Origin: Escherichia phage ID52 | Sequence record: NC_007825.1 | Direction: 5' to 3' (one strand) | DNA length: 5,538 bases | In this document: piece by piece, positions 4-5,538 of the stretch | Layout: the number at the start of each line of letters is the position of its first letter | How positions within the stretch are numbered: the first letter of the stretch is position 1 | Position numbers and translations under genes: made by a program | Notes under the pieces: generated by a model | Databases searched by the model: none | Seen by the model: the letters and a program-made list of their open reading frames with translations, nothing else | What the model was told of the DNA's origin: nothing

Positions 4-33
4 TTGACTAATACTCAATCACCACTCTAATAT
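4..33 (+). promoter_or_regulatory. Candidate sigma70 promoter upstream of gene A (pA-like)
   Basis: TTGACT at 4-9 and TAATAT at 28-33 separated by 18 nt, in the H-A spacer just upstream of A. Position matches the known pA location in phiX174-type phages. Sequence-only prediction. Confidence 0.45.
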
Positions 34-58
34 GCCTCCCATCAAACGGAGGCTTTTC
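34..58 (+). terminator. GC-rich hairpin plus T-run in H-A spacer (TH-like terminator/attenuator); stem includes the gene A Shine-Dalgarno
   Basis: GCCTCC (34-39) pairs perfectly with GGAGGC (48-53) around an 8-nt loop (40-47), followed by TTTT (54-57) and then the A start codon at 59. The 3' arm contains the GGAGG that serves as the A ribosome-binding site. Confidence 0.4.
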
Positions 59-1723
59 ATGTTTAAAACTCATTCTGACTACTTCAATAAACCAAACATC
101 GACGCAATCAAACCACTCGTCGAAACTGCTGGTATGTCTGTTCTTACTCAGTCTCCAAACCTCCGTATCTGGAAACAGTGCAATACTCGTATCAAACTTC
201 TTGAAGAAATCCTTGCTCATTATACGAATGGTATTCGCCGTGATGATAATGGTGACTTCTGGATGAATCCAAACTCTCAACTCGCAACCACTATTGCCTA
301 TCGTGCCCACCAAAAAGGCCACAATCCTAAATTCAAACAATACCCAGAGTCGTTTACTCTGGATGACATTATTACTGGCAAACCAATCCCTCAAACCGCC
401 CCTGACGAATTACAACTCTCCGATGAAATCGGTGAAGACTACCGTCTTACAGTCCTCTCCATAATCGAAGAACTGCAAGAATGTTACGATGTGCTCGGAC
501 AACTTGATATTAATAACACTATAGACCACAAACCCCTTGGTAATACTCACTGGGACTTACTCTATGAAAAACCCGTATACAAACATTGGACTCAACTCGT
601 TTCAAAACGACCCCTTAAAGATATCCGCGCCGATTACAACTATGCAAAGGCGAAGGGTATTAAGGATGAATGCTCAAAAATCTTGGAGGAATCTACTATG
701 AAGTCCCGTCGTGGATTTACCGTCCAAAGATTGATGAATGCTATGCGTACAGCCCATACTCAGGGCTGGTATGTGGTATTCGACACTCTTACCCTAGCCG
801 ATGACCGCTTAAAGGATTTCTATGATAATCCCAATGCTCTTCGTGACTACTTCCGTGGTATTGGTCGTATGGTTCTTACTGCCGAGGGTCGCTCGGTGCA
901 TGAGTCATCTGCCGACTGCTATCAGTATTTTTGTGTGCCAGAGTATGGTACACAGCACGGTCGTCTACATTTCCACGCAGTGCATCTTATGCGCACACTT
1001 CCTTTGGGTTCTCTGGACCCTAACTTCGGTAAGTTGGTACGCACTAATCGGCAAATAAATAGCTTGCAAAACACGTGGCCTTATGGTTACTCTATGCCCA
1101 TCGCAGTCCGGTACTCCCAAGATGCTTTCTCTCGTGCTGGCTGGCTCTGGCCTGTGGATGCAAAGGGTGAACCCCTTAAAGCTACCTCGTATATGGCTGT
1201 AGGCTTCTACGTTGCTAAATACGTTAATAAAAAATCAGATATTGACATGGCCGCAAAAGGCCTAGGGAATAAAGAATGGAACAATTCGCTCAAAACCAAA
1301 ATCAACCTCATACCCAAGAAGGTGTTCAGAATCCGAATGTCCCGCAACTTCGGAATGAAGCTACTCTCAATGGCTCACCTGTCAGCGGAAACTCTGATGG
1401 AACTGACCCAAGTGGGCTACGACGTGACCCCGTTCAACAACATCTTGAAGCAGAACGCCAAGAAAGAGCTCAAATCGAGGCTGGCAAAGAAATCTGTCGC
1501 AGACGTTTTGGAGGCGCAACCTGTGACGACCAATCTGCTAAAATTCATGCGCAATTTGACCCGAACAATCGGAGTGTCCAGCCTACAGAGTTTTATCGCT
1601 TCAATGACCACGAAATTATCAAGTACGGATATTTCTGATGAAACCAAAACTTACGTTGCTGATGCAGGAATTGCTGTTGCTAACTTACGAATTAAATCGA
1701 AGTGGACTGCTGGTGGAAAATGA
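59..1723 (+). CDS. A: Replication initiation protein A (HUH rolling-circle endonuclease)
   Basis: ORF 32..1723; preferred start is ATG 59, preceded by GGAGG (48-52) at 6-nt spacing, giving 554 aa. Strong recalled similarity to phiX174/G4 protein A along the whole length, including HFH (nt 968-976) and [10 protein letters not shown] with catalytic tyrosines (codons 1208-1210 and 1220-1222). Contains the origin sequence at 500-529. Confidence 0.92.
500..529 (+). other. Viral (+) strand rolling-circle origin; protein A nick site between G506 and A507
   Basis: Exact match to the conserved 30-nt Microviridae origin as I recall it, CAACTTGATATTAATAACACTATAGACCAC, located inside gene A and encoding ...[10 protein letters not shown]... 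Confidence 0.88.
698..1723 (+). CDS. A*: Protein A* (in-frame internal restart within A, C-terminal 341 aa)
   Basis: In-frame ATG at 698 (STM-KSRRGF...) at the position homologous to the phiX174 A* start; predicted 341 aa, the same length as phiX174 A*. Whether it is expressed cannot be read from sequence. Confidence 0.65.
1276..1638 (+). CDS. B: Internal scaffolding protein B (overprinted inside A in a different frame)
   Basis: 120-aa [11 protein letters not shown]...[10 protein letters not shown]...[15 protein letters not shown], matching recalled phiX174/G4 protein B, including the [10 protein letters not shown] motif and aromatic C-terminus. Stop TGA 1636-1638 overlaps the K start. Confidence 0.9.
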
Positions 1724-3844: not shown

Positions 3845-3980
3845 GGCAACAAAGGCCGCCCCTCTACTGGTCAGATGCCTGCCCAATGTGGGGCGGACCG
3901 TGCCTACGGAGATACCCGAATCTACGATACATGGACGGCGTAGCCGCCGTCCCTACTGCAAAGCCAAAAAGGACTAACAT
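3845..3980 (+). other. F-G intergenic region with stable hairpins; candidate complementary (-) strand origin of the G4 type
   Basis: 136-nt non-coding spacer. Perfect 8-bp GC-rich hairpin GGACGGCG (3933-3940) / CGCCGTCC (3945-3952) with loop TAGC. Second stem CCGCCCC (3856-3862) / GGGGCGG (3890-3896) enclosing a 27-nt loop. Small hairpin CCGT/ACGG (3898-3909). In G4 the primase-dependent complementary-strand origin lies in the F-G spacer. Confidence 0.6.
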
Positions 3981-4514
3981 ATGTTCCAGAAATTCATTTC
4001 TAAGCACAATGCTCCAATTAGCTCTACTCAGGTTACTGTTACTAAAACTCCGGCTGCCACGGCACCTGTTTTAGATGTGCCTGGCTTAAGCCGTTCTACT
4101 ATTCAAATCAATGTAACAACCACAGCCGTTACAACTCATTCAGGCTTGTGCCACGTTGTTCGTATTGATGAAACAAACCCAACAAATCATCATGCTCTAT
4201 CTGTTGCAGGTTCATTGTCGCATGTCTCTGCTGATATGATTGCTTTTGCTATTCGCTTTGAAGTCGCCGACGGCGTTGTTCCTACTGCCGTTCCGGCTTT
4301 ATATGACGTTTATCCTATTGAAATTGTCAATACTGGCAAAGCAATCTCATTTAAAGACGTTGTGACTATTGACTCACATCCCCGCACTGTCGGTAACGAC
4401 GTTTATGCGGGTATTATGCTCTGGTCTAACGCTTGGTCTGCCACCACTACCTCTGGCGTTCTCTCTGTTAATCAGGTAAATCGTGAGGCTACTGTTCTCC
4501 AGCCTTTAAAATAA
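3981..4514 (+). CDS. G: Major spike protein G
   Basis: 177-aa [13 protein letters not shown]...[10 protein letters not shown]...[18 protein letters not shown]...SGVLSVNQV...LQPLK; conserved C-terminal blocks match recalled G4/phiX174 G. AAGGA at 3969-3973, 7 nt upstream of the ATG. Confidence 0.95.
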
Positions 4515-4524
4515 GGATTATCCT

Positions 4525-5538
4525 ATGCTTGGTTCTGTCGTTGGTGGTATCGCCTCCGCTCTTGCTGGAGGCCTTACAGGTAAATTATTTGGCGGCGGTC
4601 AGTCCGCCAATTCCACCGGAGTGCAAGGTAATATTCTTGCCTCTGACAACAATGTTATTGGTGCTAATGATGCTGGTATTAAATCTGCTATTCAGGGTTC
4701 TAGCCTCCCTAACTTTAAAGAGGCTGCCCCCTCTGCTATCTCTGGGATTCTTGCCGATTCTGGCAAGCATGCGCTCTCGTCTCTTACCAATGCTGGTACA
4801 AATAAACTCATGGAAGCTGTCGGCCTTTCTAAGTCTGCCTCTGATAAGGGCAAGGATACAAAAGACTATCTTGCCGCCGCATTCCCCGAGCTCAACGCAT
4901 GGGAGCGCGCAGGTGCTGGTGCTTCTGGTGCAGGCATGCAAGATGCTGGCTTCCAAAATCAGAAAGAGCTAACCAAGATGCAGCTTGACAATCAAAAGGA
5001 AATCGCTAAGATGCAGAACGAAACTCAGAAGGAAATCGCTGGGCTTCAATCTATCACTTCACGCGAAAATACTAAGGATGCTGTCTATGCTCAAAATGAA
5101 ATGCTCGCGTATAACCAAAAAGAGAGTATGTCACGCGTTGGCGCTATTCTCGAAAACACAAGCCTCACCAAACAACAACAAACTTCTGAAATTATGCGGC
5201 AGATGCTTACTCAGGCTCAGACCACGGGTCAGCATTTTACAAATGAGCAAATCAAGGAGCTTACGCGAAAAGTTGGCGCTGATATTGATGCTGTTCGTGC
5301 TAACACTGAACGCACCCATGTAGAAACTGACCGCTCAAAACAGGAGGTTCAAAACTCCCGTTACGCTTCCTCGCAGGTAGGCAAAACCGCTAAGGACGTT
5401 TCCAATGCAATTACTGATACAGCTAGTTCTATTGTTGATTATTTTCGTGGTGTTGATCAAAAAGTGGCAGACGTTTACAACAACTATTTCAAAGATGGCA
5501 AATCGAAAGGAATAGAATCCAATCACCGTTCCAAATAA
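4525..5538 (+). CDS. H: Minor spike / DNA pilot protein H
   Basis: 337-aa ORF, Gly/Ala-rich N-terminus ([10 protein letters not shown]...KLFGGGQ), central [18 protein letters not shown] and [23 protein letters not shown] coiled-coil region, matching recalled phiX174/G4 H. AAGGA at 4513-4517, 7 nt upstream of the ATG. Stop codon is the last 3 nt of the window. Confidence 0.95.

Follow-up and report, generated by a model that had tools for sequence, protein, structure and literature searches.

The spacer between genes H and A of this phage combines a promoter, a putative intrinsic terminator and a ribosome-binding site in a single element. Most probably (a rough probability of 0.8), transcripts from the gene A promoter pA start inside the loop of the terminator hairpin, so that the hairpin acts only on RNA coming from upstream. 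This restriction is a matter of geometry, because the -10 hexamer touches the stem and pA transcripts would start within the loop. By its sequence and position, the element (window 4-61) is orthologous, within the G4 clade, to the composite of pA promoter, TH terminator and gene A ribosome-binding site already known from phiX174; the overlaps of promoter with terminator and of terminator with ribosome-binding site have both been described in print for phiX174. The window is the whole stretch of DNA that was analysed, 5538 bases, and constitutes the complete, circularly permuted genome of a G4-like microvirus (Bullavirinae, Gequatrovirus). For this G4-like phage itself, we infer the start site, the termination and a transcript-specific occlusion of the ribosome site.

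The proposed mechanism distinguishes two kinds of RNA. Polymerases arriving from gene H would copy both arms of the hairpin, and the 6-bp hairpin followed by four uridines would serve as an intrinsic terminator for a fraction of them, leaving mRNAs that end after H with a 3' hairpin cap. Through the abutment of a sigma-70 -10 hexamer on the 5' arm, pA transcripts would instead begin at C40 or A41 in the loop and escape the terminator. The resulting mRNA would have an 18-19-nt leader with a strong GGAGG Shine-Dalgarno (SD) sequence and no hairpin. Read-through transcripts that escape termination would then be the sole class of RNA in which the hairpin sequesters the ribosome site of gene A.

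End-to-end alignment of the window gives 98.6% identity with Shigella phage vB_1081 and 98.2% with coliphage NC6, and about 93% with G4, ID11 and others. Gene H corresponds to the ORF at 4525-5538 on the + strand in the list of open reading frames, and the NC6 record likewise annotates H to its last base. Its stop codon TAA fills 5536-5538 and, the genome being circular, base 1 of the window comes directly after it. Gene A, which encodes the replication initiator, occupies 59-1723 on the + strand with its ATG at 59-61, according to the annotation of NC6 and G4 and to its translation. Since the annotation of both NC6 and G4 has gene A begin at 59, bases 1-58 make up the intergenic spacer between H and A. 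The window is identical to NC6 over bases 1-69 and to G4 over 1-67, and the H-A element itself is without any difference from the window in G4 and the close relatives NC6, ID11 and vB_1081. The G4 and NC6 records annotate no promoter, terminator or start-site feature at the element, and the annotation of the G4 record NC_001420.2 holds no transcript 5' or 3' end feature.

An in-frame ATG at 32 was considered as a start of gene A (ORF 32-1723, nine codons longer) and rejected, as it is without an SD sequence and lies upstream of the expected transcription start. This ATG is also found in phiX174 and ID2-like phages and is absent in Lilledu, L016 and the alpha3-like genomes. It is probably a by-product of a -10 hexamer that ends in AT and is followed by the first G of the stem.

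The promoter, taken to be the pA orthologue, consists of a -35 hexamer TTGACT (4-9, + strand; five of six consensus matches) and, 18 nucleotides further on, a -10 hexamer TAATAT (28-33, + strand) with A at position 2 and T at position 6, which abuts the hairpin. In a consensus scan the site appears as promoter-like with 9 of 12 matches and a spacer of 18, and the scan found no second promoter-like site further upstream within the H-A spacer. An alternative -10, TCTAAT at 26-31 with a spacer of 16, also has five of six consensus matches but is without the critical A at position 2; it would shift the predicted start only 2 nt upstream, so that no more than two arm bases would enter the RNA. Among 19 distinct relatives, a -35 of the form TTGAC(A/T) is retained in 17, and a hexamer with A2 and T6 stands 0-1 nt before the 5' arm in 15 (phiX174 has a gap of this size too; in the window it is 0). 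The sequence between the hexamers diverges: compared pairwise, the relatives have a mean identity of 0.80 over the two hexamers and of 0.40 over the spacer.

The strongest promoter-like site of the window lies elsewhere, at 1907-1936 (TTGACA-18-TATTAT, 11 of 12 matches), and is presumably pD. Downstream of it and just upstream of the gene D start, the window has nine bases more than NC6 and G4, at 1959-1969, and the C-terminal tail of protein C is longer and altered there (compared with …TDANHKGN).

The hairpin follows the -10 hexamer directly, all on the + strand. Its 5' arm GCCTCC (34-39), which is homologous to phiX174 3956-3961 and predicted to be absent from pA transcripts, doubles as a G+C-rich promoter discriminator. 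The 8-nt loop CATCAAAC (40-47) is seen in the sequence and in the fold, and the 3' arm GGAGGC (48-53) holds the gene A Shine-Dalgarno sequence GGAGG (48-52), 6 nt before the ATG. A U-rich tract TTTTCATGTTT (54-64) follows, made up of four T (54-57) and then a T-rich stretch that includes the start codon. The preliminary description had read off hexamers, arms, T-run and start codon, and direct reading confirms every coordinate; it had the start codon follow upon the T-run, where the order is right and C58 sits between the two. Its assignment of the 3' arm to the ribosome-binding site also holds, both from the distance to the ATG and from the equivalent site in phiX174, which is sensitive to mutation.

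As an RNA, the hairpin folds with -11.3 kcal/mol (z = -3.4; one of 200 shuffles was equally good), which places it in the top 1% of the genome's 26-nt windows. The terminator scan matched it with six pairs, five of them G-C, and a loop of 8, the upper limit of the scan criterion; terminator-like sites as a class are weakly enriched in the window (7 versus 3.8 +/- 2.0 in shuffles). The tract contains 4 contiguous T, 5 T within the 8 nt that the scan requires and 8 T in its first 11 bases; phiX174, with T6, and the alpha3-like phages, with T5-6, have longer runs. With only four contiguous T, a 6-bp stem and an 8-nt loop, the site may terminate less efficiently than its phiX174 homologue.

Among the eleven distinct most stable hairpin sites listed for the genome, the H-A hairpin alone has a T-run directly after its stem. 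Other hairpins were noted along the way. One at 4552-4572, at the start of gene H, has arms GCCTCC...GGAGGC as in the H-A hairpin and -14.1 kcal/mol, and no T-run. Another in the J-F spacer (2527-2543, GGGGGC-TACG-GCCCCC), also without a T-run and not listed by the terminator scan, is probably the counterpart of TJ. Two (3879-3897 and 3933-3952) lie in the F-G spacer, a region for which the G4 record annotates primer RNA and the complementary-strand origin. No Rfam family matched anywhere in the window at the gathering threshold.

Where transcription starts decides what the hairpin can do. Escherichia coli RNA polymerase initiates at a distance of 7-8 nt downstream of the -10 hexamer, preferably at a purine that follows a pyrimidine. 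Counted from the end of the hexamer at 33, this distance spans the 5' arm (34-39) and puts the expected initiation at 40-41, in the loop. The predicted pA start on the + strand is accordingly C40 or, more likely, A41, the seventh and eighth nucleotides after the hexamer. With a start in the loop, the 5' arm is missing from the RNA and the terminator cannot form. For phiX174, J02482.1 and NC_001422.1 carry an annotated start at 3962, directly behind the 5' arm GCCTCC (3956-3961); its counterpart in the window is C40/A41. In relatives with a canonical hexamer abutting the stem, the seventh nucleotide after the -10 is likewise the first one past the 6-nt arm and is usually an A. A full-text literature search for the 5' sequence of A mRNA returned nothing relevant. 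On the basis of geometry and of homology with phiX174, pA transcripts most likely lack the 5' arm. Any start past 39 removes the hairpin from the RNA; the preliminary description had set this limit downstream of 53, which was too strict.

The arm between hexamer and start may have a further role of its own. With its C two bases after the -10, the G+C-rich 5' arm resembles the rRNA promoter rrnB P1. Speculatively, the arm as discriminator could shorten the lifetime of open complexes at pA and render them responsive to growth rate or ppGpp.

The homologous composite of phiX174 (nt 3927-3983) is the best characterised point of comparison. As in the window, it lies between the H stop and the A start, its arms GCCTCC/GGAGGC are identical, its -10 abuts the 5' arm, its SD sequence GGAGG is contained in the 3' arm, and a T-run and the ATG follow. 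The two differ in detail. The -10 of the window is TAATAT, with the canonical A2 and no TG extension, whereas that of phiX174 is TTTCAT with a TRTG extension; the promoter spacer is 18 nt in the window and 17 nt in phiX174. The 6-bp stem and 8-nt loop of the window contrast with a stem that can be extended to 8 bp around a 3-nt loop, its T4 with T6, and the C as its first loop base with an A.

In phiX174, TH is reported to take away about 70% of the transcriptional current, for a net 0.29-fold change across pA-TH. The terminator is leaky, so that read-through RNA over gene A exists. A 2026 saturation-mutagenesis preprint on phiX174 maps the -35 to 3927-3932 and the -10 TTTCAT to 3950-3955, with the TRTG extension, and has the 3' stem of TH overlap the gene A ribosome-binding site GGAGG at 3969-3973. 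Mutating the -35, the -10 or the TRTG extension was detrimental. In the stem, 17 of 27 mutations were detrimental on the 3' side and 3 of 23 on the 5' side. Because the 5' stem mutations are mostly neutral, the hairpin, and hence termination and occlusion, adds little measurable fitness to phiX174 under laboratory conditions.

The module is not confined to these two phages. The regions 5' of gene A in the comparative sample came from two sources, phage records with annotation and contigs (viral or metagenomic) encoding relatives of protein A. Metagenome matches were mostly phiX174 spike-in contamination, and the informative natural variants among them were few (L034, L086, L099, L100 and L102). 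For instance, the 328-kb metagenome contig FUFK010037421.1 (L035-L103) contains dozens of tandem phiX174 genome units and is evidently an assembly artefact from sequencing spike-in. The same order of elements, -35 TTGAC(A/T), 15-18 nt, -10, 0-1 nt, a 6-nt 5' arm, a loop, a 3' arm with GGAG or GAGG, a T-run and the ATG of A, was found 5' of gene A in six lineages: G4-like, ID2-like, Lilledu-like, phiX174, alpha3-like and the unclassified L016, whose protein A is 52% identical. It is absent in the more distant relatives Pectobacterium phage Mimer and Vibrio phage PG19.

The stem itself has been maintained through sequence change. Its six outer pairs can form in every one (100%) of 17 distinct sequences. 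Two of them, at columns 12-30 and 13-29, alternate between U-A and C-G (7 and 8 sequences), converting GCCTCC/GGAGGC into GCCCTC/GAGGGC, and three lineages (L017, L018 and L025) show U.G intermediates at the switching pairs. The covariation score is 0.296 versus 0.169 +/- 0.024 in shuffles, a value reached by 0 of 500, and in a control with the 3' partner slid by 1-3 columns, 34-56% of cells were paired versus 86% in the real structure. One alpha3-like metagenomic sequence, L023 (IMGVR_UViG_2974698941, 700-730), has a 29-nt deletion relative to its relatives that took the spacer, the -10 and the outer 5' arm and left the -35, the inner stem bases and the SD sequence (GAGGA). This natural variant, which has neither the hairpin nor pA, is compatible, as a single metagenomic sequence, with a coupling of -10 and 5' arm.

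Alpha3-like phages (Alphatrevirus) show how far the module can vary and move. They share with the window a -35 (TTGACA), an 18-nt spacer, a -10 (TATATT) abutting the stem, an SD sequence in the 3' arm, a T5-6 run and the ATG. They differ in their arms, GCCCTC/GAGGGC, which represent a compensatory swap, in a stem of about 10 bp with a 5-nt loop, and in the position of the module, about 700 nt past the H stop, with a second, stronger hairpin directly after H. In WA45 (L008:26-60), and at the same place in phiK (L009), this hairpin directly after the H stop has 15 bp and -20.8 kcal/mol (z = -4.7), and its 3' strand contains AGGAG, followed by UUUAUUAUG and an ORF. Alpha3-like phages also have a TTGACA that is as far from the H stop as its counterpart in G4. 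In that genus, the second hairpin may be the true post-H terminator, not the one before gene A. For the window, the preliminary description had proposed a promoter together with a TH-like terminator for transcripts reading through from H, and this remains plausible given the scan match, the conserved module and the described phiX174 homologue.

The reading just given treats termination and occlusion as joint properties of one hairpin. A different emphasis makes transcript-selective translation the main selected function and not a by-product of a terminator: protein A would be made only from loop-initiated pA RNA, and read-through RNA from pB and pD would be silenced. Predicted folds speak for such an effect. 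In RNA with both arms, the SD sequence is fully paired, with a probability of being unpaired of about 0. To open positions -13 to +5 around the AUG, model read-through RNA is predicted to need 11.7-12.0 kcal/mol; RNA starting at 40 or 41 would need between 3.5 kcal/mol, with its 3' end at ATG+35, and 5.6 kcal/mol, with its 3' end at ATG+150. Predictions for phiX174, ID2, EMCL318, WA45 and L016 show this contrast too, so that all six lineages agree. Leaky TH would supply the read-through RNA to be silenced, at least in phiX174, and the single deletion in L023 removed -10 and 5' arm together and spared the SD sequence. The neutrality of most 5' stem mutations in phiX174 weighs against selection for occlusion, the conserved T-run is accounted for by termination and not by occlusion, and L023 is but one sequence. 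On this evidence, translation as the main selected function is possible, though doubtful.

Phage T4 offers the closest mechanistic analogue for an effect of the hairpin on read-through RNA. As reviewed in PMC3014915, the SD sequences of T4 e, soc, 49 and I-TevI lie in a helix on transcripts initiated upstream, which go untranslated, and promoters in or near the 5' strand of the helix give rise to transcripts that lack this strand and are translated. By the definition of that review, the window has the T4-type geometry, with the SD sequence in the 3' strand and the promoter placed so that its transcripts would lack the 5' strand; the tight and conserved placement of -10 and 5' arm is the defining feature, and it too favours selective translation. 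The T4 cases differ in that they share no homology with the element, use late (gp55) promoters and serve temporal control, and their helix is no terminator. In the window, the promoter is of the sigma-70 type, the helix would serve as an intrinsic terminator as well, and an effect on translation is a prediction. Of all that is proposed here, only occlusion as a selected function on read-through RNA would have some novelty, and in kind it would resemble T4 gene e.

A further step would be that the contact between -10 and 5' arm is itself under selection, so that one hairpin terminates H RNA, is invisible to pA RNA and silences the A ribosome site on read-through RNA that has escaped. This is put forward tentatively and is on balance unlikely. 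If true, synthesis of the initiator A would be tied to pA alone and insulated from the far stronger pB and pD, as a sigma-70 counterpart of T4 gene e.

The pA mRNA is not necessarily fully open either. A CCTCCGT at 160-166 in gene A (codons Asn-Leu-Arg) is complementary to ACGGAGG at 46-52, which includes the A SD sequence, and loop-initiated RNA of at least 125 nt is predicted to form a long-range 7-bp helix between the SD sequence and CCUCCGU 160-166. The complement is kept in most genomes of the G4 genus (G4, ID2, L013, EMCL318 and Lilledu). In NC6 one of its pairs becomes a G.U wobble (CTT codon), and it is absent in phiX174, WA45 and L016. As a mechanism, this pairing was rejected: it is restricted to the G4 genus, is weaker in the closest relative NC6 and needs about 120 nt to be made first. 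Since the helix would form only long after the ribosome site has been exposed, it is a side observation and no mechanism. By our estimate, one CCTCC per 300 nt is not unlikely by chance.

The preliminary description had gone further and proposed that the hairpin is part of the pA mRNA itself, where it would sequester the A SD sequence and keep protein A low. It is true that the 3' arm is the SD sequence and would be fully paired in any RNA with both arms, and both protein A and its mRNA are known to occur in small amounts. The expected position of the start speaks against the proposal: with the -10 ending at 33 and the arm at 34-39, the 5' arm falls between hexamer and expected start, as it does upstream of the phiX174 start at 3962, and this abutment of -10 and stem is conserved among the lineages examined. 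The phiX174 mutations point the same way, as mostly neutral changes in the 5' stem beside harmful ones in the 3' stem are what a main A mRNA without the 5' arm would lead one to expect. Nor does the scarcity of A mRNA call for the hairpin, being put down largely to mRNA instability (PMC3335065), with the transcriptional current also falling across pA-TH; and the spacer offers no second, upstream promoter-like site. Sequestration within pA mRNA is therefore very improbable. What stands of the preliminary description is the overlap of promoter, terminator and ribosome-binding site; the damping of pA transcripts does not stand, and sequestration of the SD sequence is plausible on read-through RNA only.

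It is hardly credible that the hairpin acts primarily in single-stranded viral DNA, as a signal for replication, packaging or a host protein, with its likeness to a terminator secondary. The packaged + strand can form the hairpin, and the covariation fits RNA and + strand DNA alike. The DNA-level signals known in these phages, however, are located elsewhere, the complementary-strand origin being in the F-G spacer (NC_001420.2; ori(-) of phiX174), and several relatives keep the stem by T.G (U.G) pairs, a type that RNA tolerates but that is weak in DNA. The energy of the hairpin is marginal as single-stranded + strand DNA (-5.6 kcal/mol, z = -2.7), and T-run, SD sequence and hexamers are all explained by transcription and translation.

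Motif counts by themselves are weak evidence, and promoter-like sites are not enriched as a class in the window. Even so, a chance co-occurrence of consensus-like motifs without function has negligible probability: promoter-like sites with 9 of 12 matches are no commoner than in shuffles (12 versus 8.2 +/- 3.3), but the position of the module is kept across genera with compensatory stem changes, and the phiX174 homologue has been characterised experimentally. The hairpin and the promoter-like hexamers are real, selected features, and the strongest argument for this is that the same module stands in the same place in six microvirus lineages with compensatory changes in its stem.

Taken together, the loop-initiated arrangement of promoter, terminator and ribosome-binding site brings with it a correction of mechanism, namely that the hairpin can terminate or occlude only RNA coming from upstream. 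In a circular genome with leaky terminators, strong late transcription enters gene A, and the abundance of A RNA need not predict that of A protein. For models of phiX174-type gene expression and for refactored genomes, the consequence would be a modest one, in that pA-initiated and read-through A RNA would count as translationally different species. If occlusion on read-through RNA does matter, it would help to explain how these very compact phages keep their replication initiator A scarce.
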